Assembly: GCA_018062515.1 (NCBI GenBank)
Contig: JAGOSC010000007.1
Span: 1-56,864 of the forward strand
Origin: Candidatus Omnitrophota bacterium
GTDB taxonomy: Bacteria > Omnitrophota > Gorgyraeia > Zapsychrales > Zapsychraceae
Length of the DNA: 56,864 nt
Direction: 5' to 3'
The notes under the pieces were generated by a model. That model saw nothing but the letters and a program-made list of their open reading frames with translations, did no database searches and was not told the origin of the DNA. Each line of letters opens with the position of its first letter. The first letter of the stretch is position 1. This document shows positions 35,470 through 56,864 of this stretch, in pieces. Made by a program: the position numbers and the translations under genes.

Positions 35470-35928
35470 ATGGCTAATCAAAATATTTATACAAAACCTA
35501 TGGAAATAACAGCTGAACAGATTATGACGGAAGGTGTCGAGACCATTAAGCCCGACATGTTAGTCGGAGACCTGGCGCATGTCATGTTGCGCAAAGGATT
35601 TAATGGTTTTCCTGTCGTCGAGAATGATCAATTGCTGGGCATTGTCACGTTCACGGATCTATTTCATTTATTGGATAAAGTGGAATATGAAGATATCAAT
35701 AACGATGCCAATGCGCTTCATCATAAAATCACACAGTTGAAAAAATGGCCGGTCTCAAAAATTATGACGACCAATGTCAAAACCATTTCACCGTCGACAA
35801 CATTAAGTGAAATCATTAAATATGTTGTTCTTCAAAAAATTCACACCTTTCCGGTCATTTCAAACGGTAAGCTCGTCGGTATTCTCGGCCGCGAAGATGT
35901 TCTTAACGCAACCTTCTCCTATGGATAA
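35470..35928 (+). CDS. CBS-domain pair protein
   Basis: Two CBS repeats (..GFPVVENDQLLGIVT..DL.. and ..HTFPVISNGKLVGILGREDVL). Confidence 0.85.
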   Translation: MANQNIYTKPMEITAEQIMTEGVETIKPDMLVGDLAHVMLRKGFNGFPVVENDQLLGIVTFTDLFHLLDKVEYEDINNDANALHHKITQLKKWPVSKIMTTNVKTISPSTTLSEIIKYVVLQKIHTFPVISNGKLVGILGREDVLNATFSYG

Positions 35929-36349
35929 TCTGAGTACTCAGCTTTGGTCTAAACGTAAATCCGCTTTGCAATCTGGTCATATTGTGATTCTTGATCAACT
36001 CAGTCGTTGTAAAATGGGCCGACGTACGCCCGCCGCACTGGAGCAATATCAAGCGTTGGAACAAGTGATCATTTCCCATTTATCCGTGCAATCACCTGAT
36101 TTTTACCGGGCGCTTTTTAACCATTTGAAAACGGAGCGGTTACAAATAAAAGTTTTGGAATATCTTGAATTTGATTTAAAAGCTCTTAGAATAAGGTTAC
36201 TTGAATTCATGGAAATGCCCGTAAAGACATTCGCCGAACTGAGTAATGATATTGTCATCAGAATTAAAATTGAAAAAGAATATTTACTTCCTTTGCTTGA
36301 AATATTAATCAATCAAACCGCGCTTAAACAAACTACCTATGAAAACTAA
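35921..36349 (+). CDS. Hypothetical protein (142 aa)
   Basis: The ATG at 35921 overlaps the CBS stop (ATGGATAA). The track start at 35807 would overlap the CBS gene by 120 nt. Confidence 0.5.
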   Translation: MDNLSTQLWSKRKSALQSGHIVILDQLSRCKMGRRTPAALEQYQALEQVIISHLSVQSPDFYRALFNHLKTERLQIKVLEYLEFDLKALRIRLLEFMEMPVKTFAELSNDIVIRIKIEKEYLLPLLEILINQTALKQTTYEN

Positions 36350-36779
36350 TTTTTACTTTTTGATGGTCATCGGTTTGGTTTTATTCCTTTCCGGCTGCGA
36401 AACATTTAAAATTTTTTTGGGAACGTCGACGAAGCATTTAGAAAAAGCTAGAGTCGATGCTTTAAGCATGACGTTTGATTGTAAACTCGAAGAGTGTTTT
36501 GATTCGGTTTTAAGCCTGGCAAAGAATGAAGATATGGGAAAAACCAAAATCAATCAAAAACCCTTTGAAATATTCAGAAAAGACCGTATTAAAAGTTACA
36601 TTGTTGTAATGGGAATGGACGGAAATATTGATACGACGGAAGCCGGAATATTTTTCACTCCGCTGGAAAAGGGGGGAACAAAAATTGAAGTCTCGTCGCT
36701 GAGTGTAACCGCTAAGGAAAAAGTAGCAAAGGCCGTCTTTCAAGAATTAAACTTAAGATATAACCACACAGGTAACTAA
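36339..36779 (+). CDS. Lipoprotein, function unknown
   Basis: Lipobox LSGC after MKTNFYFLMVIGLVLF. Confidence 0.6.
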   Translation: MKTNFYFLMVIGLVLFLSGCETFKIFLGTSTKHLEKARVDALSMTFDCKLEECFDSVLSLAKNEDMGKTKINQKPFEIFRKDRIKSYIVVMGMDGNIDTTEAGIFFTPLEKGGTKIEVSSLSVTAKEKVAKAVFQELNLRYNHTGN

Positions 36780-36780
36780 T

Positions 36781-37824
36781 ATGACTATAGACATGAAAGC
36801 TTCAGATCGTTACACAAAAATTATTTGCACACTTGGGCCCGCGAGTTCAGAAGAAGCTATGATTGTTAAAATGGCCCGACGGGGAATGAATGTGGCCCGC
36901 ATCAATTGTTCTCACGGAAGCCATGCGCAGTATCAGAAAATGATCGATTTAATCCGAAGCGTTAATAAAAAACATGGATTTGATATTGGTATATTGTGTG
37001 ATTTAGAAGGTTATCGGATCCGCATCGGTAAATTAAAAAAGAATATTACCTTGGACGCTAATGAAATTGTTTATATGGCGGAAATCAAGGACAATGTTCC
37101 CGACGCTATTCCGATCGATTTTACCGAAGACCTGAAAAGGATCGAAGACGGATTGAATGTTTTTATGGATGATGGAACGCTTCAATTAAAAGTCATTGGC
37201 CGCACAGGTAAAAAACTGAAATTAAAAGTCATGCAAGGCGGTATTCTCAAGGAACGAAAAGGGGTCAATATTCCCGGATTAAAACTTCAATCGAATATCA
37301 TGACGGAAAAAGATGCTGAGGATATAAAGTTTGCCTTGCATAATAAAGCCGATATGATTTCTCAATCTTTTGTCCGGAATAACCTCGATATACAGCGCGT
37401 GTGTGAGCTTGTTAAGCCCAAACATCCAACCTGCAAAGTAATCTCCAAAATTGAAAGTGAAGAAGGGTTAATTAACGTCGAGAGTATATTGGATGAATGT
37501 GACGGTATCATGGTGGCTCGAGGAGATCTGGGCGTTTCGGTTCCTATCTATAAACTTCCCATGATGCAGAAATACTTGCTGCATTATTGTAATCGTAAAA
37601 AGAAAATGTCCATTACAGCCACCCAAATGCTCGACAGCATGATTGAGCGCGGATCTCCGACGAGAGCAGAGGTTTCCGACGTGGCCAACGCTATCCTCGA
37701 CGGCACTGATTATGTTATGCTTTCCGGGGAAACAGCGGTTGGAAAATATCCGTCGCGCACGGTTAAAATGATGAGCCAGATTGTTGTGTATACGGAAAAG
37801 CTGGCCAGAATCCGTCCTAAATAA
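36781..37824 (+). CDS. pyk: Pyruvate kinase, short form (A+B domains only)
   Basis: TKIICTLGPAS and MVARGDLGV motifs. Only 347 aa, where typical PKs are about 470 aa. The next gene starts 15 nt after the stop. Confidence 0.8.
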   Translation: MTIDMKASDRYTKIICTLGPASSEEAMIVKMARRGMNVARINCSHGSHAQYQKMIDLIRSVNKKHGFDIGILCDLEGYRIRIGKLKKNITLDANEIVYMAEIKDNVPDAIPIDFTEDLKRIEDGLNVFMDDGTLQLKVIGRTGKKLKLKVMQGGILKERKGVNIPGLKLQSNIMTEKDAEDIKFALHNKADMISQSFVRNNLDIQRVCELVKPKHPTCKVISKIESEEGLINVESILDECDGIMVARGDLGVSVPIYKLPMMQKYLLHYCNRKKKMSITATQMLDSMIERGSPTRAEVSDVANAILDGTDYVMLSGETAVGKYPSRTVKMMSQIVVYTEKLARIRPK

Positions 37825-37839: not shown

Positions 37840-38355
37840 ATGATTGAACACGAATTACTATTTTTGGGGCTCCTCAAAGACGGCCCGAAACATGGTTATG
37901 AAATCAAACGCCTGATTGAAGATGAGCTTTCGCGTTTTGTGGGCTTAAAAATCAAATCCATTTATTATCCTCTCCGGAAAATGGAAAAATTAGGATTGAT
38001 CACTAAAGACATCGACCGCGAAGGAAATTGGCCGGAAAAGTTCGTATATACCCTGACCAAAAAAGGCGAAAGTATCTTTGAACACATGATCAATGAGAGC
38101 TTTTTAAGTATTGAAAGGCCATACTTTGACATTGATTTATCCCTGTATTTCCTTCAATATGTCGATAAAAAAATCGCTAAACGTCAGCTGAGAGGGCGCA
38201 TCTTGTTTCTCCGTCGGATTAAACGCGACCTCAATAACATTAAAAAGACAACAAAATCAGAACAAAAACATCTCATCATCATCCTCGAACACGACCTCGA
38301 TTTGGTCGAAGCTGAAATCAAATCCATCACCAAATTGATGGGAACCCTAGTCTAA
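37840..38355 (+). CDS. PadR-family transcriptional regulator
   Basis: N-terminal winged-helix LLGLLKDGPKHGYEI...YYPLRKMEKLGLI. 171 aa. Confidence 0.85.
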   Translation: MIEHELLFLGLLKDGPKHGYEIKRLIEDELSRFVGLKIKSIYYPLRKMEKLGLITKDIDREGNWPEKFVYTLTKKGESIFEHMINESFLSIERPYFDIDLSLYFLQYVDKKIAKRQLRGRILFLRRIKRDLNNIKKTTKSEQKHLIIILEHDLDLVEAEIKSITKLMGTLV

Positions 38356-38396: not shown

Positions 38397-38424
38397 TTGA
38401 CAAAAAAGCAGGATTTATTAAAAT
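38397..38424 (+). promoter_or_regulatory. Sigma70-type promoter (TTGACA-16 nt-TAAAAT)
   Basis: Consensus -35 at 38397-38402 and -10 at 38419-38424. It lies in the 134-nt gap between padR and the acyl-CoA ligase gene. Confidence 0.55.
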
Positions 38425-38489: not shown

Positions 38490-40004
38490 ATGGGTGTTCT
38501 AATGCGAATTAATGATGTTCTGAAGCAAGTTGCCGGGAAATATCCTCAAAAACCCGCTTTAATTTTTAACGATCAAACCGTCACTTTTAAAGAGCTTAAA
38601 GATCTGGTTTATAAAACTGCCAATGTTTTACGCTCTTATGGCATCGTAAAAGGCGATAAGGTTGGAATATATTTGCCAAATGGCTTGGAATACGTTTATA
38701 GCTATTTGGCTTGTTTTTGTTTAGGGGCTGTGGCCGTGCCGCTCGATTTTATGCTGAAAGATGAAGAATTGATATCCTGCCTCGATCACTCCGAAACAAA
38801 ACTTCTCATAGCTCAAGAAAGAAAAAGCGTCGATTTACCCAATATCAAACAACAAGTTTCTAGTTTAAAAACGATTCTGATTGCTGACCAATTTTCCGAA
38901 AAGTTGAATCAAGCCAATTCAGATTTTGAAGCGGTAAATATTGCCGATCATGATCCGGCGCTGATTATGTACACGTCGGGAACAACCGGCCGTCCAAAAG
39001 GGATTTTACTCAATGCCCGTCATTTAGACGGTTCTCCGCAAGCGATGGAATATTTTGTCGACCTTTCCGATAAGGATATCAAGTTAGCCGCCATTCCGTT
39101 TAGCCACATCGGCGGATTTATTTACATTCAAAATTGCATTACGTTTGGAATCACATTGGTCATTATGGAACGGTTTAACCCGTTTGAATTTTTAGAAAAA
39201 ATCAATCGATACAAAGTCACCTGTTTTCATATTGTCCCGCCGATGTATACGGCAATTTTAACTCTTAAAGAAATTGAACGATTCGATTTGTCGTCGTTAA
39301 GATGGGTGGTTGTCTTTGGTGCGCCGAGCTCGCCTGAAATCTTGCAACGTTTTAATCAATATTGTCCCAATGCCAGGCTTCTCAATGGCTGGGGCATGAC
39401 CGAAACAACACCTCCAAATACAGTCACACCCATGAATAGTAAAAATATTGAAAGTGTTGGAAAGCCAGCACCGAATTGCAAAATCAAAATTATTGATGAT
39501 AACGATCAAGAAGTTAAAACCGGCGAAATAGGTGAGATTGTCATCAGCGGTTGGGTGGTGATGGATGAATATTATAAAGATCCTGAAGAAACAGCGCGTG
39601 TTAAACGTAATGGATGGCTGCATACCGGCGACTTAGGACGAATTGATCAAGATGGTTTTCTCTATATCGTCGGACGGAAAAAAGAAATGATTAAAGTAGC
39701 TGGTCAAATTGTTTATGCACCGGAAGTTGAAGCGACTTTTTATAAACATCCGGATATTAGCGAAGTTGCGGTTATTGGAATTAGTGATTCATTAAAGGGC
39801 GAAGCGGTTAAAGCTTTTGTCGTATTAAAGAAAGAAAGTAATGTAACAGCTGAAGATTTGCGTTATTTTGCTCGTCAACATTTAGCCAATTTTAAAGTCC
39901 CACAAAGTATTGAATTACGAAGTGAATTACCAAAAAATCGCACCGGTAAAATCGATAAAGCTTTACTGAAAGAAGAAAATTTACTCGTCGATGGAAAAAG
40001 ATGA
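38490..40004 (+). CDS. AMP-dependent acyl-CoA synthetase/ligase (ANL superfamily)
   Basis: YTSGTTGRPKG (A3), GWLHTGDLG (A8) and PKNRTGKI (A10) motifs. 504 aa. Confidence 0.9.
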   Translation: MGVLMRINDVLKQVAGKYPQKPALIFNDQTVTFKELKDLVYKTANVLRSYGIVKGDKVGIYLPNGLEYVYSYLACFCLGAVAVPLDFMLKDEELISCLDHSETKLLIAQERKSVDLPNIKQQVSSLKTILIADQFSEKLNQANSDFEAVNIADHDPALIMYTSGTTGRPKGILLNARHLDGSPQAMEYFVDLSDKDIKLAAIPFSHIGGFIYIQNCITFGITLVIMERFNPFEFLEKINRYKVTCFHIVPPMYTAILTLKEIERFDLSSLRWVVVFGAPSSPEILQRFNQYCPNARLLNGWGMTETTPPNTVTPMNSKNIESVGKPAPNCKIKIIDDNDQEVKTGEIGEIVISGWVVMDEYYKDPEETARVKRNGWLHTGDLGRIDQDGFLYIVGRKKEMIKVAGQIVYAPEVEATFYKHPDISEVAVIGISDSLKGEAVKAFVVLKKESNVTAEDLRYFARQHLANFKVPQSIELRSELPKNRTGKIDKALLKEENLLVDGKR

Positions 40005-40369
40005 TAAGAGTGAAACTGGAAAGAAAGGATACAAAGAACATATTAGGCTTCTTTACGTGTTTAAATATCATCATAATTCCTGGTTTAATAAATGCGGTTG
40101 GAATGATTCCTAATAGAATAGATGTTCTGGGTTTCTGTTTTTACATTTTTCCCTTGGTTGCCGGTTGGCTTTTTTACAACAAGGGAAAAGATATGATGGC
40201 TAAAATTATGGTATTATGCATAACTTTATCATTGATACTATTGGCGTTATGGATGTATATGCCGTTTCTCGGCAATTTTCTTATCATACCTAACATTTTT
40301 GCTTTTTTTTCGTTATTTTATTGGCTAGTGACAAATAGGAAAGGAATTGAATATGAAAGAAATGGTTAA
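40001..40369 (+). CDS. Small polytopic membrane protein (about 4 TM), unknown
   Basis: ATGA overlap with the ligase stop. Hydrophobic throughout. Confidence 0.5.
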   Translation: MIRVKLERKDTKNILGFFTCLNIIIIPGLINAVGMIPNRIDVLGFCFYIFPLVAGWLFYNKGKDMMAKIMVLCITLSLILLALWMYMPFLGNFLIIPNIFAFFSLFYWLVTNRKGIEYERNG

Positions 40370-41126
40370 AGAAGCACACATGACAGGAAAAGATTTAATG
40401 GGAATGGTTCAATTAACACCCGAGGCTGTGGGGAAATATGCGATTGTTCCTGGTCCTCGAGAACGCGCGGATGCGATTGTTAAAAGAATTACCAATCCAG
40501 TTAAGAATTTTAGTTTTATGGAATATACCATGCATACCGGTGATTATAAAGGCATCAAATTGACGACGATTAATGGGGGACGTTTTGCTCCGGATACGTC
40601 GATTACGACGGAAATTTTATGTAATGCGCAGATTAAAGGTTTAATCCGCGTTGGCAGTTGCGGGGCCATGCGTGCTGATATGAAGGTCGGAGATATTATT
40701 GTCGTTGACACGGCGATTAAAGGTGACGGAGTTACCAAATATTATGTGAATGATGATTTTGTACCAAAAGCTGATCCGCATTTATCAAAAATTTTGACAA
40801 ACATCGCTAAAAATTCACTTCAGGCTAACGGTCTCGTCGGAAATACAGTCCACGTCGGTCCTTGCTGGACGACGGATGCGATATTAAGAGAAACACGGGA
40901 ACATGTCTCTAAGGCGGTTAGTCAAGGCGCTATCGCGGTCGATATGGTGACCTCCGCGTTATTAACTATTTGTAATCTTTATAAAATTCCAGCGGCCGTT
41001 ATTTTGGCAGTCAGCGACAATGTCATCACCGGTGAAATGGGATTTATGAATCCGGATTATTATATGGCAGAAGGTGCAATTATCAATATCGCCCTCGATG
41101 CGATTATGGAATTAGAAAAGAAATAA
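40353..41126 (+). CDS. NP-I (PNP/UDP) family nucleoside phosphorylase-like protein, paralogue 1
   Basis: VPGPRERA..., IRVGSCGA and MKVGDIIV pattern resembling Udp/DeoD-type phosphorylases. The ATG at 40353 follows AAGGA. Substrate cannot be assigned. Confidence 0.7.
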   Translation: MKEMVKEAHMTGKDLMGMVQLTPEAVGKYAIVPGPRERADAIVKRITNPVKNFSFMEYTMHTGDYKGIKLTTINGGRFAPDTSITTEILCNAQIKGLIRVGSCGAMRADMKVGDIIVVDTAIKGDGVTKYYVNDDFVPKADPHLSKILTNIAKNSLQANGLVGNTVHVGPCWTTDAILRETREHVSKAVSQGAIAVDMVTSALLTICNLYKIPAAVILAVSDNVITGEMGFMNPDYYMAEGAIINIALDAIMELEKK

Positions 41127-41136
41127 GGATAAATTT

Positions 41137-41892
41137 ATGACAGGCATGACCAAAGATATTTATCTTTCCGGTAAAGAATTAACGCAAATGGTTCAGTTGT
41201 TGCCAAAGGACGTAGGGCGATATGCAGTTGTTCCGGGTCCGCGTGATCGGTTGAAAGGAATTTTAGCGGAAGTAGAGAAGCCGGTCAAAAATTTCAGTTT
41301 TATGGAATACGAAATGCATACCGGTCATATCGACGGGGTCAAAGCCACTTTTATGAATGGCGGACGATACTCGGCAGACACAGCGATTACGACGGAATTA
41401 TTATGTGCCGTCGAGATTCCGATTATTTTCCGTTTGGGAACGTGTGGCGCTTTGCGTGAAGACATGAAAATTGGTGATGTGGTCGTTGTTGAAAATGCAT
41501 TATCCAATGACGGTGTGACGCCATTCTATATCAATGATAAAAATTTTGAACCAAAATCCGATATGAAGTTGGTGAATGAAGTCGTCAAAGCGGTCGAATC
41601 CGTCGGATTAAAAGTCCATCGGGGTAAAGTGTGGTCACATGACGCATTGTTAAGACAGACACGTGAGAGCGTCAACCAAGCGATTGACCAGGGGTGTCTC
41701 GCTTCGGATATGGTGTCCTCAACATTTTTAAGTATTTGTCATTTGAATAAAACATCAGGTGTATCGATTCTTGCCGTCGGGGACAATGTCGTCAAAGGCG
41801 AATTTGGTTATTTAGATACCAATTTTTATATGACGGAATATATGTTAACCGGAGCCTGTTTTAAAGTCATTAAAAATTTAGGGATAAAATAA
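41137..41892 (+). CDS. NP-I (PNP/UDP) family nucleoside phosphorylase-like protein, paralogue 2
   Basis: Colinear with paralogue 1 (VPGPRDR, KNFSFMEYEMHTG, FRLGTCGA, MKIGDVVVV). By eye, roughly half the residues are identical. Confidence 0.7.
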   Translation: MTGMTKDIYLSGKELTQMVQLLPKDVGRYAVVPGPRDRLKGILAEVEKPVKNFSFMEYEMHTGHIDGVKATFMNGGRYSADTAITTELLCAVEIPIIFRLGTCGALREDMKIGDVVVVENALSNDGVTPFYINDKNFEPKSDMKLVNEVVKAVESVGLKVHRGKVWSHDALLRQTRESVNQAIDQGCLASDMVSSTFLSICHLNKTSGVSILAVGDNVVKGEFGYLDTNFYMTEYMLTGACFKVIKNLGIK

Positions 41893-41895
41893 AAT

Positions 41896-42885
41896 ATGAA
41901 TAAACCAGCTCACAAATTAAAAGAATCACCGTTATTTTGGCCGGCCAAATTAAAGGGCGCAACATTAAAAGTTTTGGATGAAACTCAAATTCCGAACAAA
42001 GTTGAATATATTGACGTTAAGTCGACGGGGGACGCGGTTAGAGTCATAAGACAAATGAAAACGAGAGCGTTCGGTCAATTTTTAGTTGTTTTAAATACTT
42101 TTCTTTTGGAATTAAGAGCCAATCCGTCTGTGTCCGATAAAATGCTGTTATTAAAATTGAAGAAAACGGCTGAACGATTAAATAACAGCCGGCCGACATT
42201 TCCTTTTTCGGAAGTCACGTCGATTGTGATTCACTGGGCGAATGATGCTTATGAAAAGAAATTAAATTTACGGGAAATCGTCGCTGTGAATGTTGAAGGC
42301 TATTTAAAAGGCATTCGTTATCGACGATTAGATCGTGTGAATCGTATTGCCAATTTACTTCAAGATGGTGATCGAATTTTGACGCATTGTAATGTTAGCG
42401 GCGAGTTAGCGATGGCATCTAATATTGCCGTTAATCAGAATAAAAAAATTCACTATTTCGCGACGGAAACGCGTCCGTATATGCAAGGCTCTAAGTTGAC
42501 TTGTTGGGAACTTAAACGAATGGGCGCCGATGTAACTCTCATCGCTGATAATGCCATCGGTTCGGTCATGAGTGATGGATTGGTCAATAAAGTCATCGTC
42601 GGATCTGATCGTTCTTGTGCTAATGGTGATTTTGCGAATAAAATCGGCACATATCAAATTGCTGTTTTGGCGAAAGAATTTAATTTGCCATTTTATGTTA
42701 TGACTCAACCGTCGAATAAAGTGAAAACCGGCGAAGACATTCCCATCGAAATCAGAAATGCCAATGAGCTTTTAACGTTTTATAAAAAGAAAATTGTGTC
42801 CGGTGTGATCAATGGTTTCTATCCGGGTTTTGATGTTGTTCCCAATGAATTGATTACCGAATCAATACCGATCAACGTAAATTAG
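41896..42885 (+). CDS. eIF-2B alpha/beta/delta-family sugar-phosphate isomerase (MtnA / 5-deoxyribose-1-P isomerase-like)
   Basis: LTHCNVSGELA (catalytic Cys loop), TETRPYMQG and VGSDRSCANGDFANKIGTYQ (catalytic Asp) motifs. 329 aa. Confidence 0.8.
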   Translation: MNKPAHKLKESPLFWPAKLKGATLKVLDETQIPNKVEYIDVKSTGDAVRVIRQMKTRAFGQFLVVLNTFLLELRANPSVSDKMLLLKLKKTAERLNNSRPTFPFSEVTSIVIHWANDAYEKKLNLREIVAVNVEGYLKGIRYRRLDRVNRIANLLQDGDRILTHCNVSGELAMASNIAVNQNKKIHYFATETRPYMQGSKLTCWELKRMGADVTLIADNAIGSVMSDGLVNKVIVGSDRSCANGDFANKIGTYQIAVLAKEFNLPFYVMTQPSNKVKTGEDIPIEIRNANELLTFYKKKIVSGVINGFYPGFDVVPNELITESIPINVN

Positions 42886-42893
42886 GATGAATC

Positions 42894-43409
42894 ATGAAGG
42901 CTGAACAAGAAAAGCAACAAGATGTATTAAGTGAATTTAAAGAATCGGTCGTATTGATGCAGGGCGTATTTGACCCGATATATTTTGATTTAGTCAAAAA
43001 AAATAATTTCAAAGACGTGTTTGTCCTCGAGGGACGCCCATCATTAGAATCCGCGCAATTTTCGTGTAATGAATTGATTAAACGAAAAATCAAACCGACT
43101 TTAATTGCCGATAGTATGGCGGGTTTTTTGTTTTATAAGAATTTAGTCAAGGAAGTATGGTTATCCTATCAGCAGGTCGACGAAAAAGGTGCTCTATGCC
43201 AAATTGGTGCTTTGATTTTGGGTGTACTCGGGAAAAAACACAATGTGCCGGTTAAAGTTTTTCCTAATCCTTATAAAGTAAATCTCGTCGGCCATCAGAG
43301 AGAAATCTTTTATTTCAATGGCGTGAAGGTTGCTCCCAGCAATATTAAGGGATATGTGCCGTTGGCGGAATGGGTGCCGAGGAAATATATAACGGAGATT
43401 AATTCGTAA
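42894..43409 (+). CDS. Truncated, degenerate eIF-2B-family paralogue (C-terminal Rossmann half only)
   Basis: 171 aa. VLEGRPSLES..ELIKRKIKPTLIADSMAGFLF aligns with TETRPYMQG..TLIADNAIGSVM of the upstream gene. The GSDR catalytic segment reads LSYQ, and the N-terminal domain with the Cys loop is absent. Confidence 0.55.
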   Translation: MKAEQEKQQDVLSEFKESVVLMQGVFDPIYFDLVKKNNFKDVFVLEGRPSLESAQFSCNELIKRKIKPTLIADSMAGFLFYKNLVKEVWLSYQQVDEKGALCQIGALILGVLGKKHNVPVKVFPNPYKVNLVGHQREIFYFNGVKVAPSNIKGYVPLAEWVPRKYITEINS

Positions 43410-44422
43410 TGGCTGATCATATTCAACAATTAAAAGATCATATCATCACCATTGGCCGCCTATTGTGGGAAAAAGATTTAGTCAGCGGTCTTAACGGTAA
43501 CATCAGCGCACGCGTGGATGAAGAAAGAATTTTGTTGACAGCGACGGGATCTTGTTTAGGTATGCTGCAGGAAGAAGATATTCTCCTCATGCGTTTATCT
43601 GGGGAAATGATTGATGAAGGAAAAGTATCGACGGAAAAACTTCTTCATACCGAAATTTATAAAAATTTCAAAGAAACGGCGGCCGTCATACACACGCATT
43701 TAACGTATACCAATGCATACTTTCTAGAGAATGCTGTTTTAAAGCCGAGAATTTTTGAGACACGTATTTATTTAGGCGAAGTTACCGGTGTTCCGCAGAA
43801 TACACCAGCGGTGACCGACGCTGCACCCGTCATCGATTCTTTGAAAAGAAACAATATTGTTGCGCTACGTAATCATGGTGTTGTCGCCATGGGATTAGAA
43901 CACTTTGATTGTTTTTTATTGATTCAAGCGCTTGAAGAAGCAGCCAAGATTGATGCGATTAGTCGGTTATATACAAAGAAGGATCAAGGTTCAACTCATG
44001 ATCAAAAAACGGAAATACAAAATCAGCCGCAGCCTTCAAGTGGAAAAAAATATGCATTATTCTCGTCGGAACAAATCGCGGACATTGTTAAATATGTGAA
44101 TGAAGATCCTCAAATGGCTGAATTAGGTCAAAAGACAAACATGACGATGGATTTAGCGGTTAAGCTGGACGAGACTGGTAAAACATACAGCTTTAGATTC
44201 AAACAAGGCAGAATATCGGAAGTCGGAAATGATGAAAATGCGGAATTTTTAATTAATGCGCCCGAAAAAATTTGGCGAGCGGTTTTTAACCGAGAAATTG
44301 ATCCGTTCGTCGCTACGACGCAAAAGAAAATGCATTTGCGTGGAGATTTCGCGAAGATCTCTAAATGGTATGCGCCTTGTTCACGCGTATTTGAATTGTG
44401 GTCACGGGTACCGGTAGAATAA
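43409..44422 (+). CDS. Class II aldolase/adducin-domain protein fused to a C-terminal SCP2-like domain
   Basis: N-terminal half: LNGNISAR, HTEIY, AVIHTH and RNHGVVAMG (class II aldolase/MtnB/FucA-like metal ligands). Low-complexity linker KKDQGSTHDQKTEIQNQPQPSSGKK. The C-terminal ~120 aa are SCP2-like (..FLINAPEKIWRAVFNREIDPFVATTQKKMHLRGDFAK). TAATG overlap with the previous gene. Confidence 0.72.
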   Translation: MADHIQQLKDHIITIGRLLWEKDLVSGLNGNISARVDEERILLTATGSCLGMLQEEDILLMRLSGEMIDEGKVSTEKLLHTEIYKNFKETAAVIHTHLTYTNAYFLENAVLKPRIFETRIYLGEVTGVPQNTPAVTDAAPVIDSLKRNNIVALRNHGVVAMGLEHFDCFLLIQALEEAAKIDAISRLYTKKDQGSTHDQKTEIQNQPQPSSGKKYALFSSEQIADIVKYVNEDPQMAELGQKTNMTMDLAVKLDETGKTYSFRFKQGRISEVGNDENAEFLINAPEKIWRAVFNREIDPFVATTQKKMHLRGDFAKISKWYAPCSRVFELWSRVPVE

Positions 44423-45909
44423 TGAAAGCAATTGAATTGAGACAATATGAGCTTTTTATCGACGGAAAGTTAGTGTCCGCTCAAAAGTATTTTGATGCCA
44501 TCAATCCTTCGAACGGAGAAGTTTTTGCCAAGATCGCTGATGCTTCCGTTGAAGATATGCATAAAGCCATAGCTGCTGCTCGTCGTGCATTTGATCATGG
44601 GCCTTGGAAAGATTTCAGTTTTGCTCAACGCGGAATTTATCTGAAGAAGATGGCGAAGAAGATCCGAGACCATGCCAAGGAATTAGCTGAATTAGAAACA
44701 TTGAGTGTAGGAAAAACGAGTAAACATGCGAATTTTATTGATGTTCCAACAGCCATTGAAACATTTGAGTATTTTAGTGATGTTAATTTAGAAGGTTTAA
44801 CGCGGATTAATCCCGTCGACGCACCTGTAAAAAGTTTAACCAAGAAAGAACCGCTCGGCGTCATTGGAAGTTTATTTGCTTACAATTATCCGATTATTTA
44901 TTCAGCCTGGAAATTAGCCCCGGCTTTGATGACGGGAAATTGCGTGATTCTAAAACCATCGCCTAAGGCCTGCGCTTCGGTCATGCGTTTAGCGCAATTG
45001 TTGGCTGATTGTGATTTACCTAACGGAGTGATTAATATCGTTTCGACACAAGATAATAAAACCGCTATGGCTTTAGTCAGTCATCCCGACGTCAATATGA
45101 TCAGTTTTACCGGCGGAAATAAAACCGGACAGCTCATTATGCAAGAAGCAGCGAAGACGACTAAAAAGATTTCATTAGAGCTTGGTGGTAAATCACCGAA
45201 TATTGTTTTTGCGGATTGTGAAATGGAAGCGGCTTTAGGAGGAACATTGTCGTCGATATTTATTAATCAAGGACAAATGTGTACGGCCGGATCACGATTA
45301 TTCGTCGAGGAATCAATTTATGAACCGTTTGTTAAGAGATTAGTTGAACGTGCGCGATCGCTTAAAATAGGGGACGCGTCGGATTACACGACGGAATTCG
45401 GACCAATGACTTCAAAAGAACAGAGAGATGCTGTTTTAACTCATATTAATGAAGCGGTGAAGGACGGAGCAAAAATAGCGTGCGGCGGAAAAATACCGAC
45501 GGAAGTTTCTTCAAAAGGATATTATATTGAGCCGACCATTTTAACAAATGTAAACAATAGTATGGCGATTGTCCGCGATGAGGTGTTTGGGCCGGTCTTA
45601 TGTATTTTTAAATTCATCGACGAGAAAAATGTTATTCAAATGGCTAATGATTCCATATTTGGTTTAGCTGCGAGTGTATGGACCAAAGATCCGGCTAAAG
45701 CTGAGCGCGTGACGAATCAATTACAAGTCGGAACGGTTTGGATCAATACGTATGGCGGATTTTATAATCAAGCTCCTTTTGGAGGATATAAGCAGAGTGG
45801 ATTTGGACGCGAGTTAGGCCCAGAAGGAATGCTGGAATATATGCAGACAAAACATGTTTGTATCGACCAGACACCCGGGGGTATGCCTTTAGCCGCGTCG
45901 TGGTTCTGA
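44422..45909 (+). CDS. NAD(P)-dependent aldehyde dehydrogenase
   Basis: ELGGKSP and QGQMCTAGSR (catalytic Cys) motifs. The ATG at 44422 overlaps the aldolase stop (TAATG). Confidence 0.92.
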   Translation: MKAIELRQYELFIDGKLVSAQKYFDAINPSNGEVFAKIADASVEDMHKAIAAARRAFDHGPWKDFSFAQRGIYLKKMAKKIRDHAKELAELETLSVGKTSKHANFIDVPTAIETFEYFSDVNLEGLTRINPVDAPVKSLTKKEPLGVIGSLFAYNYPIIYSAWKLAPALMTGNCVILKPSPKACASVMRLAQLLADCDLPNGVINIVSTQDNKTAMALVSHPDVNMISFTGGNKTGQLIMQEAAKTTKKISLELGGKSPNIVFADCEMEAALGGTLSSIFINQGQMCTAGSRLFVEESIYEPFVKRLVERARSLKIGDASDYTTEFGPMTSKEQRDAVLTHINEAVKDGAKIACGGKIPTEVSSKGYYIEPTILTNVNNSMAIVRDEVFGPVLCIFKFIDEKNVIQMANDSIFGLAASVWTKDPAKAERVTNQLQVGTVWINTYGGFYNQAPFGGYKQSGFGRELGPEGMLEYMQTKHVCIDQTPGGMPLAASWF

Positions 45910-45995: not shown

Positions 45996-46352
45996 ATGAA
46001 TAATTTGAAAAATATAATGTCTACAGTATCGATCTTATTAATCATTTCAGTCATATACTCGATTATGGTTATTGGATTGTCCTTGTCTATGGAATTAAAT
46101 TACACAGCTTCTTTAATGGGGCGTTTATGGTATCCGTATGTTTTCTTTATTGTTTTGACCGGTCCTTTAGCGCTGTTAATCTCTCCATCTCTTGGTATCT
46201 TTTTTAAAATATTTTATTTTCTATTGTTTACATCAATTTTTGTGTTGTGTTGCAGTTATTTACGATATAAATCGAAAATTTTGTCAATTATAGTGATAAG
46301 TCTTTGGTGTGTATTAGGATTTTTTTTGGCTCTTGATGTACCCATGCTTTAA
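45996..46352 (+). CDS. Small polytopic membrane protein (about 4 TM), unknown
   Basis: 118 aa, almost entirely hydrophobic. Confidence 0.5.
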   Translation: MNNLKNIMSTVSILLIISVIYSIMVIGLSLSMELNYTASLMGRLWYPYVFFIVLTGPLALLISPSLGIFFKIFYFLLFTSIFVLCCSYLRYKSKILSIIVISLWCVLGFFLALDVPML

Positions 46353-46390: not shown

Positions 46391-47860
46391 ATGAAAGTTT
46401 TATTTTTAACGCCGCCTTTGAAAGCTTGGGATTCACATGGATATCATCGGGCCGCTAATCAAATGCATGCCCAAGCCGCCGCTTATGTACGAAAAAATAA
46501 TACCGCTGACGTTGTGGCATTAGATTGCCGTGCGATGGATTATGATTGGACTGAAATGTTAAATCAGGTGGGAAAAATTAATCCTGATATGGTTTTTTTC
46601 GGAGATCAATTATTTTCGACGTGCGGCGCCGCCGTTATTTGGTATTTTAATGAAGCCATGCGGCTCATCAAAAATAAATTTCCAAACATGATTATGGTTG
46701 GAAGCGGTTTATGGTATTCGGCTGATCCTGATCGTCAAATGCGTTTAAATCCGCAAATTGATTATATTCTGATCGGTGAGGCTGAACTGACATTGAATGA
46801 ATTGCTTCAAAACTTAAAATCTAAAAAACAAGATGAACGGGATATCCCCGGGCTTGTTTCTCGACGAGATAAAAAAACAATCGTCATTGGTCCACATCGA
46901 GGATTGATTCCAGATTTAAATGTGCTTCCAATGCCAGCGTACGATTTATTTCCTATGGATAAATATGTCGGGCATACATATTGGAAACCATTCGCTGAAT
47001 TGATGACATCCCGAGGCTGTCCTGGCAAATGCCATTTTTGTTATGAATGGGCATTATATGACAGTCGTTCAGCGGCGAAAGATTTCACTTCATGGCGAGG
47101 TACGTCGGGTAAGAGAATTGTCGACGAGCTTGATGTTTTGGAAAAACAATATGGAGTAACAACCGTCGTTATGCAGGATGATGCGTTTAACAGTGATACA
47201 AAAGCCATGATCGAATTCTGTGAAGAAAAAATAAAACGCGGAAATAAAATCGGCTGGGTTTGTTTGGGACGAGCTGATCAGTGGATATCACAGCACAGCA
47301 TTTTGCCGCTTATGCGCGAAGCCGGATTGTTTATGGCTTTAACTGGCGTCGAGGTTGAATCCGATGCTCAATTAACAAAGACAGGTAAAGGCGTCACCTT
47401 AGGACAAATCAAACAAACGATTAATATTTTACGTGAGCAAAATATCGGAACGGTTGGAACAGTTTTAATCGGATTGCGCGACGATGATGAAGCAAAGATT
47501 AAAGAACGTTTACGCGTCGCTGATGAAATTGATCCCGACGTATTTGCTTTGGATTATTTGACACCTGTGCCTAATTCTCCGGATTGGCGTTATGGTATTC
47601 AGCAAAAATGGTTTGATCCCGAAACGATTGATTTAAAAACGTGGGATTTTCAACATCCGGTTATCCCGACGGATCATTTGTCCGCCGAGGAAGTCGGCCG
47701 ATTAGGCGCGTGGTGTATGCGTGAATATTATTCCAAACCGGAAAGAATTCATCGAATTATGCAAGCTCCTTACGATATGCGCGTTAAATTATGCGTTAAG
47801 GATTTTATGAGTAATATAGCCAAATGGGAAGCCAATTCCCGGGTGCAGACAAATGCTTAA
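46391..47860 (+). CDS. B12-binding-domain radical SAM enzyme
   Basis: CPGKCHFC (CX3CX2C, nt 47018-47041) preceded by an N-terminal Rossmann-like B12-binding-type domain. 489 aa. SD AGGAGAAA upstream. Confidence 0.88.
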   Translation: MKVLFLTPPLKAWDSHGYHRAANQMHAQAAAYVRKNNTADVVALDCRAMDYDWTEMLNQVGKINPDMVFFGDQLFSTCGAAVIWYFNEAMRLIKNKFPNMIMVGSGLWYSADPDRQMRLNPQIDYILIGEAELTLNELLQNLKSKKQDERDIPGLVSRRDKKTIVIGPHRGLIPDLNVLPMPAYDLFPMDKYVGHTYWKPFAELMTSRGCPGKCHFCYEWALYDSRSAAKDFTSWRGTSGKRIVDELDVLEKQYGVTTVVMQDDAFNSDTKAMIEFCEEKIKRGNKIGWVCLGRADQWISQHSILPLMREAGLFMALTGVEVESDAQLTKTGKGVTLGQIKQTINILREQNIGTVGTVLIGLRDDDEAKIKERLRVADEIDPDVFALDYLTPVPNSPDWRYGIQQKWFDPETIDLKTWDFQHPVIPTDHLSAEEVGRLGAWCMREYYSKPERIHRIMQAPYDMRVKLCVKDFMSNIAKWEANSRVQTNA

Positions 47861-47944: not shown

Positions 47945-48223
47945 ATGAGTGAAGCGCAAACAGTACAGATTCCATGGGAAACAAAGGCGAGTGAGAAATA
48001 TATGTTAATGATTTCCAAAATTCCTTTGTTTCACCGTGATATTGCTAAACAAGTTGTTGATAAACAGGCGGTCATTAACGCTCAACAGCGAGGATCAACA
48101 CAGGTCGAAGAGGGGGATATCATTTTGGCATTTTTTTCCGAAGTGCCGATGACATTTTACAGTTTGATGATCCGCTTGTTTCAGAATGTTGGTTTTGATT
48201 ACAAAAAATATGAACCTAAATAA
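47945..48223 (+). CDS. Small PCP_red-like (protochlorophyllide reductase C-terminal-like) domain protein
   Basis: IPWETKASEKYMLMISKIPLFHRDIAKQVVDKQA resembles the W..eA...L..iP.f.R pattern of PF08369. Family call is tentative. Confidence 0.5.
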   Translation: MSEAQTVQIPWETKASEKYMLMISKIPLFHRDIAKQVVDKQAVINAQQRGSTQVEEGDIILAFFSEVPMTFYSLMIRLFQNVGFDYKKYEPK

Positions 48224-48238: not shown

Positions 48239-49258
48239 ATGAAAATTGCCATTATCGGGGCTGGTGCCATAGGATCAACCTTGGCGGCTTACTTACATAA
48301 AGCCGGAAAAGAAGTGGTCTTAATTGGACAAGAAGGACAGGTCAAAGTTATTAATTCAAAAGGCCTAATGATCCGTCGAGCGGGAAACGATGAAGTTTTT
48401 AAAATTAAAACTTTATCAAAACTCGATCGGGAATATGACTTAGTCATTTTTGCGACGAAGACACAAGATCTTGAGGCGGCTTATTATCAAAACTCTGATT
48501 ATTTGGAAAATTGTTTTGTGTTAACGACTCAGAATGGCGTCCAGGGGGATAATATTTTGAGTAGTCATTTTGACAGAAAAAATCAGATGAGCAGTATTGT
48601 CATGTTTGGTGCTACGTATATAAATCCTGGTGAAATCATCTTTAATTTTCCTGGTGATTGGATTGTCGGTAAACCATTTACCGACAATGACCCGACATTT
48701 CATGGAATATTATCCGAGCTTAAGATGCCCGAAATTCCGATTGTTGTATCCAACGATATTTATGGAATGAAATATTTAAAATTATTTATTAATTTTAATA
48801 ATTGTATTCCGGCGGTGATTGGAAAATCCATGCAGGAAACATTTTCAGATTTGGATCTTTGTCGTTTGAGTATTCGCTTATTGAAAGAAGGATTAGATAT
48901 TCTTAAGACAGTTAATATTGAAATCGTTTCATTGCCTACATTTCCTAAGGAAAGAATTATTGGATTGACCCAAATGCCTGAAGATCAGGCGGCGGGGATT
49001 GTGCAGCAGACATTAATGAAATTAAGCAAAGAACCTTTATACGGTTCAATTTTGCAAAGTATTATGCGCGGTAAACCGTCGGAGATTGAATTTATCAACG
49101 GTGAAGTAGTGGCCTTAGCCAAAGCCATACAGCTTGAAGCTCCTTTGAATCAACAAATTGTTGATCTTGTTCACGTGGTGGAACAAAAGCATAAATATTT
49201 TACCGTCGAGGAAATTAAAGAGAAATTTAAATTAACAGAATCAGTTTTAAAGAAATAA
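48239..49258 (+). CDS. Ketopantoate-reductase (PanE/ApbA) family oxidoreductase
   Basis: MKIAIIGAGAIGS Rossmann N-terminus. Length is 339 aa and the layout is typical of the family. Substrate unknown. Confidence 0.7.
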   Translation: MKIAIIGAGAIGSTLAAYLHKAGKEVVLIGQEGQVKVINSKGLMIRRAGNDEVFKIKTLSKLDREYDLVIFATKTQDLEAAYYQNSDYLENCFVLTTQNGVQGDNILSSHFDRKNQMSSIVMFGATYINPGEIIFNFPGDWIVGKPFTDNDPTFHGILSELKMPEIPIVVSNDIYGMKYLKLFINFNNCIPAVIGKSMQETFSDLDLCRLSIRLLKEGLDILKTVNIEIVSLPTFPKERIIGLTQMPEDQAAGIVQQTLMKLSKEPLYGSILQSIMRGKPSEIEFINGEVVALAKAIQLEAPLNQQIVDLVHVVEQKHKYFTVEEIKEKFKLTESVLKK

Positions 49259-49269: not shown

Positions 49270-50535
49270 ATGAAAAAAAGAAGAGTGGTCGTGACGGGGA
49301 TTGGTGTCATCTCTCCGAATGGAATAGGAAAAGAAGCTTGTTGGGACGGAATGATTAATGGCCGATCAGCTATTAAAAGAGTGACTGAATTTGATGTCTC
49401 CATGTTTAATACAAAAATCGCTGCCCAGGTGCATGATTTTGATCCGATTAAATTGGGATTAACGCGAGACGAAGCGATTCGTACCGATCGTTATGTTCAG
49501 TTTGCCATGGTCGCTGCGCGCATGGCTTTGGAAGATTCTGGAATCAATTTGGAAAAGATTGATCGAACCCGCATGGGTGTTTCATTGGCTAATGCGATTT
49601 GCGGAACAAAATATATGGAAGAAGAATTCGCGCTCGTCACCGACAGCGGAAAAAATCCAATCGATCCGACGATCGTTCGGCCAGATCTTTACGATGCATC
49701 GATGTTTAATACACCGTCGAGTGAAATTTCAGCTAAGTATGGATTAAAAGGTGTTTGCAACACAATCTCGACGGGATGTACCGCCGGAACAGATTCGGTT
49801 GGATTTTCTTTTGAAGCGATTCAAGACGGGGATGTTGACATTATGGTTACCGGAGCGTCGGAAGCGCCGATCACACCCATTACCTTTGGTGCTTTTGATA
49901 CAGTGAATGTTTTATCGGTTCATAATGAACATCCCGAAAAAGCTTCACGGCCATTTGATTCCAAACGTAATGGATTTGTTATTTCTGAAGGCGCCGGTTT
50001 ATTGGTCGTCGAGGAATTGGAGCATGCCAAAGCCCGAGGCGCCAGAATTTATTGTGAAATCGTTGGATTCGGTACTACGTGCAATGCATTTCACATGACC
50101 GATTTACCGCCGGAAGGTGACGCGAAAGCGGCATGCATCAATATGGCCCTCGAAGATGCCCAAGTTAAACCGACGGATATTGACTATATTAATGCTCATG
50201 GATCATCCACGCGGCAGAATGATGTCTTCGAAACAAATGCTTATAAAATGGTTTTTGGCGATTATGCATATAAAGTGCCGATCAGTTCGCTTAAGTCGAT
50301 GATCGGCCATCCGCTCGCCGGTGCTAATGGCATTGAATTAGCAGTGGGCGCATTAATTTTTGAACGCGACATGCTTCCTCCGACGATTAATCAAGAGTTT
50401 CCTGATCCACAGTGTGACCTTGATTACGTTCCCAATAAAGCGAGAAAGCTACGCGTCAACTGTATGTTAAAAACATCCAGCGGATTTTCAGGAATACATT
50501 CGGCGATGGTTTTACGTCGATATAATAAAAATTAG
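49270..50535 (+). CDS. Beta-ketoacyl synthase, type II PKS KS-alpha-like
   Basis: ISTGCTAGTD (Cys170, nt 49777-49779), NAFHMTD, INAHGSST, SLKSMIGHPLGA and DPQCDLDYVP motifs. 421 aa. Confidence 0.9.
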   Translation: MKKRRVVVTGIGVISPNGIGKEACWDGMINGRSAIKRVTEFDVSMFNTKIAAQVHDFDPIKLGLTRDEAIRTDRYVQFAMVAARMALEDSGINLEKIDRTRMGVSLANAICGTKYMEEEFALVTDSGKNPIDPTIVRPDLYDASMFNTPSSEISAKYGLKGVCNTISTGCTAGTDSVGFSFEAIQDGDVDIMVTGASEAPITPITFGAFDTVNVLSVHNEHPEKASRPFDSKRNGFVISEGAGLLVVEELEHAKARGARIYCEIVGFGTTCNAFHMTDLPPEGDAKAACINMALEDAQVKPTDIDYINAHGSSTRQNDVFETNAYKMVFGDYAYKVPISSLKSMIGHPLAGANGIELAVGALIFERDMLPPTINQEFPDPQCDLDYVPNKARKLRVNCMLKTSSGFSGIHSAMVLRRYNKN

Positions 50536-51800: not shown

Positions 51801-52037
51801 GTGGCTGTCGAAACAACACTTAATCGTATTTTTAATAAAGTATTAGACCTTAGTCCTGAAGATATTGTTAAGGATGAGCCTCTGGATCAAGCGCATGAAG
51901 TCGACTCAACCGAAATGGTGGAGATTTCCGTCGGGCTTAAGAAAGAATTAAAGATTGATATCGGTGATAATGAATTAAAGAAAACACATTCTTATAAAGA
52001 TATCGTCGGTATTTTAAAGGCTAAAGGAATTGCGTAA
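51801..52037 (+). CDS. Acyl carrier protein
   Basis: 78 aa. EVDSTEMVEI matches the (L/V)DS(L/T)..VE phosphopantetheine-Ser motif. GTG start with SD AAGGAGAG. Confidence 0.8.
   Translation: MAVETTLNRIFNKVLDLSPEDIVKDEPLDQAHEVDSTEMVEISVGLKKELKIDIGDNELKKTHSYKDIVGILKAKGIA

Positions 52038-56028: not shown

Positions 56029-56864
<836 letters not shown>

Follow-up and report, generated by a model that had tools for sequence, protein, structure and literature searches.

In a window of 56,864 nucleotides (positions 1 to 56,864 of contig JAGOSC010000007.1, assembly GCA_018062515.1 of a Candidatus Omnitrophota bacterium), we found a set of genes at 40347-45909, here called the module, that is very probably an integral part of an aromatic, type II polyketide synthase (PKS) gene cluster. 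The module encodes two phosphorylases, an MtnA-like isomerase with a half-size paralogue, a class II aldolase fused to an SCP2 domain and an aldehyde dehydrogenase (ALDH). A gene for an adenosine monophosphate (AMP)-forming ligase lies upstream, and genes for a cobalamin-binding radical S-adenosylmethionine (SAM) enzyme and for the PKS follow downstream. It seems likely that the enzymes run a reaction series of the type known from the dihydroxyacetone phosphate (DHAP) shunt. The most likely overall scheme is that the module converts a 5'-substituted adenosine to an acid, X-CH2-COOH, which is loaded by the ligase as primer of the PKS. Taken by itself, the priming of the PKS by this acid is about evenly balanced, and we give about even weight to the module being a biosynthetic cassette of the polyketide cluster rather than a housekeeping salvage operon. 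A previous reading of this DNA from its sequence alone (the sequence-only reading) had proposed that the module could be dedicated to clearing away the radical SAM enzyme's by-product or, alternatively, could supply the PKS with a small acid. Disposal came out as the weaker of these two proposals, and the supply of an acid is backed by comparative genomics.

The comparison used genome pieces of about 20 kb, all from metagenome-assembled genomes (MAGs). The same gene set was found together with a type II PKS (the ketosynthase (KS) subunits KSα and KSβ, acyl carrier protein (ACP), cyclases, ketoreductase (KR) and decarboxylase) in about 140 loci, with the gene order shuffled. These loci are mostly from Omnitrophota; a few are labelled Deltaproteobacteria/Desulfobacterota, Syntrophobacter, Victivallales, Deferribacterales or Desulfofervidaceae. 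In 20 close Omnitrophota MAG loci, the order is PadR regulator, ligase, purine nucleoside phosphorylase-like gene (PNP), long isomerase subunit, half-size isomerase subunit, aldolase, ALDH, radical SAM enzyme, a small conserved gene (orf92), ApbA-like oxidoreductase, KSα, KSβ, ACP and cyclases. A scan anchored on KSβ revealed about 50 loci from a further lineage of Omnitrophota in which the module is split around the PKS, with ligase and PNP before it and isomerase, aldolase and ALDH after it. There, the first part reads (PadR), ligase, PNP, orf92, ApbA, KSα, KSβ, ACP, cyclases, major facilitator superfamily transporter and KR, and is followed by radical SAM enzyme, Amidohydrolase_2, (class IV aminotransferase), long and half-size IF-2B, aldolase-SCP2 and ALDH. 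Yet other orders were observed where the label is Deltaproteobacteria, Victivallales or Desulfofervidaceae. The cluster is also present on the complete Omnitrophota chromosomes CP070684, CP070797, CP070837 and OY759724. Module, ligase and PKS are co-inherited through this shuffling. With about 140 independent loci sharing this combination of genes, the arrangement is far beyond chance, and because the genes stay together while their order is scrambled over phylum-level distances, they can be regarded as one functional system.

Gene presence was counted in the 37 aldolase-anchored loci that are flanked by 9 kb or more on each side. In this well-flanked set, IF-2B genes are present in all 37 loci, ALDH in 34, a radical SAM gene in 33, PNP in 29, the ligase in 27 and KS in 26; PKS genes or an MMPL exporter set occur in 37/37. 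Genes for an MMPL transporter, a LolA-like/DUF1329 protein and a DUF1302 outer-membrane protein follow the module in 15-17 loci (L021-L046, L058, L064 and L083 in our numbering; examples are L022 12424-17086 and L058 4121-6427 and 10953-13263). These attached genes hint at an exported, lipid-like molecule as the product. Other additions are lineage-specific, namely a class IV aminotransferase in 10 loci, and a DeoC/LacD-type class I aldolase together with a Zn-dependent alcohol dehydrogenase in eight (examples at L024 7760-8578, L026 11061-11858 and L053 956-1987). The possibility that the class IV aminotransferase substitutes for the phosphorylase in loci seemingly devoid of PNP was rejected, as PNP in these loci is located upstream of the PKS, beside the ligase. 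One bacterial ligase-PNP-orf92-ApbA-KS cluster with 79% KSβ identity was found in a contig binned as 'Methanosarcinales archaeon' (L129, JAIWAR010000044.1), and this archaeal label is probably a binning error.

Proteins of the window were assigned with Pfam, which was run on nearly all open reading frames (ORFs) of at least 100 amino acids not nested inside a larger gene, and with NCBIfam, where the bit score for each model is compared to its curated cut-off. The module genes are consecutive on the plus strand and abut or partly overlap, and Pfam matches were obtained for all of the genes named by the sequence-only reading (two NP-I phosphorylase-like genes, an eIF-2B-family isomerase, a class II aldolase and a Cys-type ALDH). 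That list held for the genes that it named but was not complete; it overlooked the half-size IF-2B ORF, the SCP2 domain of the aldolase and the upstream AMP-forming ligase. NCBIfam scores of phosphorylase, isomerase and aldolase are far under the curated cut-offs for MtnP, MtnA, DrdA and FucA, and, judged by their sequences, the module enzymes are clades of their own.

Phosphorylase 1 (40347-41126, alternative ATG at 40353; PNP_UDP_1, PF01048, E 4.9e-35) belongs to a divergent clade of hexameric, DeoD/Udp-like NP-I enzymes. Its paralogue, phosphorylase 2 (41137-41892; E 1.3e-26), shares 48% identity with it, and in our census of loci this second copy is restricted to the window and its closest relative, L017. 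The highest NCBIfam scores were obtained with Udp (94.5 bits, cut-off 280), DeoD (90, cut-off 230) and MTAN (56, cut-off 169). There are weak matches to HpnG (42 bits) and futalosine hydrolase (26 bits), and NCBIfam gave no match to MtnP. B. cereus PNP is matched with 87 bits. Gly20, Arg24, Arg87, Ser90 and the purine-type pair Ser203-Asp204 are kept, in the numbering of the E. coli DeoD sequence. The predicted phosphorolytic function is supported by the conserved Arg24, Arg87 and Ser90. In all orthologues, Arg43 is replaced by Glu, and Glu179-Met-Glu181 by Asp-Met-Val, so that the proteins look like purine-type enzymes with an unusual sugar pocket. No kinase of the MtnK/DrdK type was found in the cluster.

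The long isomerase subunit (41896-42885, 329 amino acids; IF-2B, PF01008, E 1.3e-51) is a predicted MtnA-like aldose-1-phosphate to ketose-1-phosphate isomerase. It passes the subfamily model TIGR00524 (189.8 versus 185.85) and stays under the MtnA equivalog cut-offs (207 versus 279 and 227 versus 271) as well as under that for ribose-1,5-bisphosphate isomerase (127 versus 314). B. subtilis MtnA gives 146 bits, and alignments to the MtnA structures 1t9k and 2yrf span the whole protein. The catalytic Cys (LTHCNVSG) and Asp (VGSDRSCANGD), described as intact by the sequence-only reading, line up with those of B. subtilis MtnA (2yrf/2yvk) and are invariant in 18 orthologues. Directly downstream, a half-size paralogue of 171 amino acids (42894-43409; PF01008, E 1.3e-13) covers profile positions 126-271 only and shares 28% identity with the C-terminal half of the long subunit. 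It carries SYQQ at the catalytic GADR site, lacks the catalytic Asp and has conserved motifs of its own (EGRP, DNMAG and VPL.EW). In nearly all loci its gene lies beside that of the long subunit. The half-size protein is probably a non-catalytic partner subunit, and the pair suggests a heteromeric MtnA-like isomerase, of which we know no earlier description.

The aldolase (43409-44422) consists of a class II, metal-dependent, DHAP-type aldolase domain (Aldolase_II, PF00596, E 4.3e-34) and a C-terminal SCP2 lipid-binding domain (PF02036, E 3.3e-05), which at 24.6 bits is above the Pfam gathering cut-off of 21.3. The residues equivalent to Asn29, Ser71, Glu73, His92, His94 and His155 of FucA, which include the His ligands noted by the sequence-only reading, are invariant across 24 fusion proteins of 26-47% identity. 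The AlphaFold model (pLDDT, the predicted local distance difference test, 85.9) shows two domains and a disordered linker at residues 191-211. A Foldseek search with this model matched T. thermophilus FucA with a template modelling (TM) score of 0.85 and the 5-deoxyribulose-1-phosphate aldolase DrdA with 0.78-0.80. All of the top 50 Foldseek matches are to the aldolase domain and do not confirm the SCP2 domain, which is supported by Pfam and the two-domain model. The sequence scores low for every named family: 110 versus 250 for FucA_Meth, 37 bits for DrdA and 55 versus 300 for the ribulose-1-phosphate aldolase model RU1PAldHalo; MtnB models cover only the N-terminal 100 residues with 61-67 bits against cut-offs of 137-226. 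Relatives of the fusion protein form 660 clusters at 90% identity, and the best 120 of these 660 are all full length and, where named, from Omnitrophota. Representatives at 50% identity add about 25 clusters of full-length fusions with 28-47% identity to the query, and SCP2 is fused to the aldolase in every family member, down to 26% identity. The 24-member alignment (A1) does not contain a conserved stretch long enough for a pattern search, and the sub-alignment A2 was used instead. The label 'L-fuculose-phosphate aldolase', which these proteins currently carry, is probably wrong. The sequence-only reading had named a firm grouping of the phosphorylases with uridine/purine phosphorylases and of the aldolase with FucA/RhaD as evidence that would speak against it. 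Udp/DeoD and FucA are indeed the nearest families, yet the scores reach about one third to less than half of the cut-offs and are firm in neither direction.

The last gene of the module (44398-45909; Aldedh, PF00171, E 1.9e-166) encodes a putative NAD(P)-dependent, non-acylating ALDH. The motifs of the catalytic Glu and Cys, ELGGKSP and QMCTAGSR, can be read in the translation, and the nearest families are betaine aldehyde dehydrogenase, retinal dehydrogenase and phenylacetaldehyde dehydrogenase, each under cut-off. The ligase gene (38490-40004; AMP-binding, E 3.7e-89, and AMP-binding_C) adjoins the phosphorylase gene in most loci. Its product scores nearest to long-chain-fatty-acid-coenzyme A (CoA) ligase (454 bits, cut-off 476) and reaches 274 bits with acetate-CoA ligase; FadD5, MenE and FadD13 are its nearest entries in the PDB. 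The A5 motif LNGWGMTET was found in 46 of the 50 motif instances among 51 orthologues, and Gly in GWGMTE occupies the position of the Trp that lines the acetate pocket of acetyl-CoA synthetase.

The PKS genes of the window comprise KSα (49270-50535), in which Cys170, His310 and His347 are intact, and a KSβ or chain-length factor (CLF)-like subunit (50544-51776), in which the active-site Cys is changed to Arg and the two His to Asp and Asn. With a discrete ACP (51801-52037; PF00550, E 1.2e-05; DSTE motif), the features of a type II PKS are all present: a KSα with Cys-His-His, a KSβ that lacks the catalytic Cys, and a separate ACP. Residues of KSβ were read from an alignment to FabF structures, with the act CLF (1tqy_B) among the structures listed. 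In CLF proteins, a Gln is the residue tied to decarboxylative self-priming. The KSβ of the window has no such Gln; Arg occupies the Cys/Gln position in 37 of 39 orthologues and Lys in the other 2, which is consistent with the need for an externally supplied primer. Further downstream are a PF04199 'putative cyclase' (52178-52978), an SRPBCC polyketide cyclase/aromatase-like protein (53267-53722; PF10604), a short-chain dehydrogenase/reductase-type KR (53760-54533; PF00106, E 2.1e-52, and KR domain) and a protein of the Amidohydrolase_2 family, which includes aromatic-acid decarboxylases (54821-55732; PF04909, E 2.5e-22). The gene for the latter travels with the cluster in divergent lineages, too.

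From the gene content and the active sites we infer in which direction the flux runs, that the acid would serve as the starter, and what X may be. In the scheme that we favour, the DeoD-like phosphorylases would cleave a purine (adenine-type) 5'-substituted nucleoside to 5-X-ribose-1-phosphate, which the MtnA-like isomerase, with its catalytic long and non-catalytic half-size subunit, would convert to 5-X-ribulose-1-phosphate. The class II aldolase would split this compound into DHAP and X-CH2-CHO, and the ALDH would oxidise the aldehyde to X-CH2-COOH. The adjacent ligase would then activate the acid and transfer it to ACP (or CoA) as primer for KSα/KSβ. The order of phosphorylase, isomerase, aldolase and ALDH had been likened to the DHAP shunt by the sequence-only reading, and the catalytic and phosphate-binding residues as well as the adjacency of the genes fit this proposal. 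Working candidates for the substrate are 5'-methylthioadenosine, which would yield 2-(methylthio)acetate, and 5'-deoxyadenosine, which would yield acetate, possibly modified by the B12-radical SAM enzyme. The Gly in the ligase pocket and the kinship to FadD/MenE, the constant fusion to SCP2 and the lipid-export genes all point to an acid that is larger or more hydrophobic than acetate. The supply of an acid accounts for ALDH and ligase, since the aldehyde would be oxidised and the acid adenylated and transferred. It also agrees with the adjacency of the ligase and phosphorylase genes, with the Arg or Lys at the Cys/Gln position of KSβ and with the placing of the promoter- and terminator-like sites. 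Additionally, the context of the PKS cluster argues for a biosynthetic role over detoxification or carbon salvage.

Several observations weigh against the supply of an acid to the PKS. The Arg43 contributed by the neighbouring subunit is lost in the phosphorylases and the ribose-binding Glu181 appears as Val, for which the scheme offers no explanation. A lipid-binding SCP2 domain makes little sense together with acetaldehyde or methylthioacetaldehyde, and with acetyl-CoA at hand, nucleoside-derived acetate would be a wasteful primer. As all module proteins score well under the curated family cut-offs, their substrates could differ from those of the paradigms. In eight loci, module, ligase, radical SAM enzyme and MMPL/LolA-like/DUF1302 genes are found with no PKS gene within 10 kb. 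Conversely, a complete Omnitrophota chromosome (L136, CP070807.1) carries a KSα/KSβ/cyclase core at 2144-9989 with no ligase, module or radical SAM gene nearby; this core is preceded by genes for an Asn-synthase-like amidotransferase and a methyltransferase and by a truncated ApbA gene, and the neighbourhood resembles a polysaccharide locus. In L096, ligase and PNP are missing upstream. Also, some of the taxonomic labels and bins of the MAGs may be unreliable.

The alternative that was first put forward by the sequence-only reading, a dedicated disposal or salvage unit that clears inhibitory 5'-deoxyadenosine produced by the B12-radical SAM enzyme and feeds the products into central metabolism, appears unlikely; a hybrid with recycling into the primer is possible. 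A radical SAM gene accompanies most of the well-flanked loci and even lies inside the module in several lineages (flanked by the two IF-2B genes in L027 and L043, and by the half-size IF-2B gene and PNP in L058 and L064), and the DHAP shunt is an established route for 5'-deoxyadenosine (PMC6079011; PMC10986504). However, module and PKS persist in six loci, from about five genomes (L007, L013/L086, L014, L055 and L077), whose clusters contain no radical SAM gene, and the phosphorylase is neither MtnP- nor MTAN-like. ALDH, ligase, SCP2 fusion and the non-catalytic isomerase subunit would be superfluous for disposal and are nevertheless conserved, which weakens this explanation. Cells have many radical SAM enzymes, and a salvage pathway bound to a single cluster and split around its PKS is hard to rationalise. 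Quite unlikely, in our view, is the trimming of a hydrophobic lipid or aromatic precursor to which a 5'-deoxyadenosyl unit is bound through C5', in the manner of the futalosine and hopanoid pathways. Here, adenine and three sugar carbons would be removed, the resulting R-CH2-CHO would be oxidised to R-CH2-COOH, the ligase would activate this acid, and SCP2 would hold the tail, with a two-carbon carboxymethyl extension as the net result. NP-I family enzymes such as HpnG and MqnB process adenosylated lipids or aromatics. The SCP2 domain, constant throughout the family, would find a role, as would the open pocket of the ligase, whose nearest relatives are long-chain, MenE and FadD enzymes, the lipid-export genes at the module, the altered sugar-binding region of the phosphorylase and its weak similarity to HpnG and futalosine hydrolase. 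On the other hand, the cluster holds no adenosylating radical SAM enzyme of the HpnH or MqnE type. Its own enzyme is of class B, a class known mainly for methylation, and some clusters lack it; the RlmN-like radical SAM enzyme of some loci, considered as a candidate, was judged to be a flanking housekeeping gene, as it is always located at the cluster edge. The MtnA-type isomerase would also have to accept bulky 5-substituents. In a related and decidedly doubtful version, SAM would serve as a two-carbon carboxymethyl donor: DHAP leaves upon trimming of the C5'-adenosylated intermediate, and R-CH2-COOH is re-activated for PKS or lipid assembly and for MMPL/LolA-type export.

Ordinary nucleoside or pentose catabolism would lead from ribose-1-phosphate via ribulose-1-phosphate to DHAP and glycolaldehyde and further to glycolate, with the PKS as a mere neighbour or as the recipient of glycolyl units. 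The phosphorylases are indeed nearest to the nucleoside-catabolic enzymes Udp and DeoD, and a haloarchaeal route with a ribulose-1-phosphate aldolase is known, the model of which gives 55 bits with the aldolase. Nevertheless, we regard this explanation as very unlikely: the models for this aldolase and for ribose-1,5-bisphosphate isomerase stay far below their cut-offs, neither a ribose-1-phosphate kinase nor a ribulose-1,5-bisphosphate phosphatase was found in the cluster, the aldolase-SCP2 family was met only in this cluster context, and co-inheritance with the PKS through reshuffling speaks against mere neighbourhood. It is highly improbable that the similarity to the DHAP shunt is misleading altogether and that the aldolase-like and IF-2B-like proteins were recruited for other chemistry on the polyketide, such as that of a decarboxylase or oxygenase (compare OtnC, PhtC, NovR and TqaM). 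The class II aldolase fold does host decarboxylases and non-haem-iron enzymes, and the Foldseek/PDB matches include YgbL, HMPDdc, TqaM and pyruvic oxime dioxygenase. One locus (L015) contains ligase, aldolase-SCP2, SRPBCC and ApbA-like genes with no PNP or isomerase in between, but it is a contig of merely 2.9 kb. Against recruitment, the Asn and Ser that bind the sugar phosphate and the Glu base of the aldolase are invariant, as are the catalytic Cys and Asp of the isomerase, and IF-2B genes and ALDH flank the aldolase in 37 and 34 of the 37 well-flanked loci, respectively.

Among known systems, the DHAP shunt (MtnP or MtnN plus MtnK, MtnA and Ald2; DrdK-DrdI-DrdA) shares with the module the formation of a 1-phosphate from a 5'-deoxynucleoside, an MtnA-like isomerase and an aldolase of class II that releases DHAP and an aldehyde (PMC6079011). 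The Cys and Asp of the MtnA/DrdI type, the three His, the Glu base and the DHAP phosphate site of the aldolase are also present in the module. The module differs in its hexameric DeoD/Udp-type phosphorylase, in lacking MtnP and a kinase, in the additional non-catalytic isomerase paralogue and in the fusion of the aldolase, for which DrdA is a distant match, to SCP2. Furthermore, ALDH and an AMP-forming ligase are added, and the genes lie within or are split around a type II PKS instead of forming a stand-alone operon. Regarding methionine salvage (MtnA-B-C/W/X-D-E), Pfam revealed neither the MtnB dehydratase family nor an enolase-phosphatase, an acireductone dioxygenase or other dioxygenase, or an MtnE-type aminotransferase in the window, in agreement with the statement of the sequence-only reading that the full pathway is not encoded here. 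The haloarchaeal non-carboxylating pentose bisphosphate pathway differs by the kinase, the phosphatase and the family models discussed above.

The closest match to the enzyme series is the fluoroacetate pathway of Streptomyces cattleya (fluorinase, FlB, isomerase, fuculose-type aldolase and fluoroacetaldehyde dehydrogenase), in which fluoroacetaldehyde is oxidised to fluoroacetate in the ALDH step. There, as predicted here from gene content and active sites, phosphorylase, MtnA-like isomerase, class II aldolase and ALDH act in series on a 5'-X-5'-deoxyadenosine to form X-CH2-COOH for secondary metabolism. The two differ in the type of phosphorylase, and in the present cluster the acid apparently undergoes activation by a ligase and is linked to a PKS. 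No fluorinase/chlorinase (SAM_HAT/DUF62) domain was found in the Pfam-scanned ORFs of the window or in the scanned conserved cluster families of other loci. Clustering of KSα, KSβ, ACP, cyclases, KR and an AMP-forming ligase resembles type II PKS clusters that are primed by a ligase; the benzoate:ACP ligase EncN of enterocin and AuaE/AuaEII of aurachin biosynthesis are dedicated ligases for non-acetate starters. In contrast to these, the starter would here be derived from a nucleoside sugar, which to our knowledge is unprecedented, KSβ carries Arg/Lys at the Cys/Gln position, and the host belongs to a mostly anaerobic, uncultivated phylum. With the futalosine (MqnE, MqnB) and hopanoid (HpnH, HpnG, HpnN, HpnJ/HpnR) pathways, the cluster shares an NP-I base-removing enzyme that would act on an adenosine-derived intermediate of a lipid or aromatic pathway. 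A B12-radical SAM enzyme and an MMPL exporter nearby are known from the hopanoid pathway; here, the radical SAM enzyme matches HpnJ with 118 bits and MMPL genes occur in some loci. Unlike these pathways, the cluster has no adenosylating enzyme similar to HpnH or MqnE, and the sugar would be degraded by isomerase and aldolase, whereas it is retained or cyclised there. The route from 5'-fluorodeoxyadenosine to fluoroacetaldehyde has been cited as an analogue of 5-deoxyribose salvage by Beaudoin et al. (PMC6079011).

The pathway type is known, and KS-CLF pairs in Candidatus Omnitrophica have already been catalogued; the mention in that catalogue (PMC10132072) is the sole trace in the searchable literature, where no description of the module, the SCP2-fused aldolase or the two-gene isomerase was found. 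New is the recruitment of DHAP-shunt/fluoroacetate-type chemistry into a type II PKS cluster. Provided that the module supplies the PKS, the primer of a polyketide would be carved from a nucleoside sugar, the first case that we know of, and metabolism of SAM by-products would be tied directly to secondary or lipid metabolism, with fluoroacetate formation as the sole established parallel. Should an adenosylated intermediate be trimmed instead, this would add a third carbon-building use of adenosylation to those known from futalosine and hopanoids, and the first in which the resolving step is a cleavage of the DHAP-shunt type. The cluster is among the most conserved biosynthetic loci of Omnitrophota, and none of the genomes found comes from a cultured representative. 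Given how widely it is distributed, the cluster probably yields a product of importance to these small-celled bacteria; this may be, in some lineages, an exported phenolic lipid or pigment of the outer membrane. For biocatalysis and annotation, the SCP2-fused DHAP aldolase, the two-gene MtnA-like isomerase and the DeoD-like phosphorylase with its altered ribose site are useful enzyme variants.

The remaining genes of the cluster lie at its head and between the module and the PKS. A PadR-family transcriptional regulator (37840-38355; PF03551, E 4e-12) is encoded at the head and precedes the ligase in 30 loci. Consensus scans placed the best sigma-70-like promoter match of the region (38397-38424, plus strand, 11/12) between PadR and ligase, and its strongest terminator-like hairpin (53150-53182, plus strand, 14-bp stem and T run) past the PF04199 cyclase. 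Merely 5-8 bp matches are located between the promoter-like site and this sole 14-bp hairpin, and the genes from ligase through cyclase may form one operon. The gene for the class B (cobalamin-binding) radical SAM enzyme (46391-47860; PF04055 and PF02310; cluster motif CPGKCHFC) starts 482 nt past the ALDH stop codon, close to the 500 nt estimated by the sequence-only reading. It shows weak, mixed matches only, with 175 bits versus a cut-off of 481 for BchE, the HpnJ match mentioned above, and TokK, AprD4 and CysS in the PDB. The 92-residue protein orf92 (47945-48223) has only a weak DUF2621 match; it was found in 37 loci, always beside the ApbA-like or radical SAM gene, and some loci carry a second copy after the B12-radical SAM gene. 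The ApbA/PanE-family, ketopantoate-reductase-like oxidoreductase (48239-49258; PF02558 and PF08546) exceeds the cut-off of subfamily TIGR00745 (159.5 versus 141). Two small hydrophobic ORFs, 40001-40369 (122 amino acids, in the gap between ligase and PNP) and 45996-46352 (118 amino acids, between ALDH and the radical SAM gene), have no counterpart in related loci; they are probably not members of the system and perhaps strain-specific or not genes at all.

The G+C content of the window is 38-40%, and nearly every gene is on the plus strand. The region upstream of about 35 kb contains housekeeping genes (trpA/B, argS, recJ, thyA, folA, moaC and glycogen enzymes). It also encodes a nitroreductase, a chalcone-isomerase-like protein (PF16036) and a DeoC/LacD-family aldolase of 349 amino acids (16404-17583 and 15232-16281). 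Upstream of the cluster, a GGDEF diguanylate cyclase and a response-regulator-EAL phosphodiesterase of cyclic di-GMP signalling were found at 19569-20606 and 27763-28944. Just upstream of PadR, a pyruvate-kinase-like protein of 347 amino acids consists of the barrel only and lacks the C-terminal domain (36781-37824); its gene occurs in no more than about eight related loci, along with the conserved ORFs of unknown function at 35807-36349 and 36339-36779. At the end of the window, the 5' 827 nt of a bacterial 16S rRNA gene (56029-56864; Rfam, 785 bits) begin about 300 nt beyond the last gene of the cluster.

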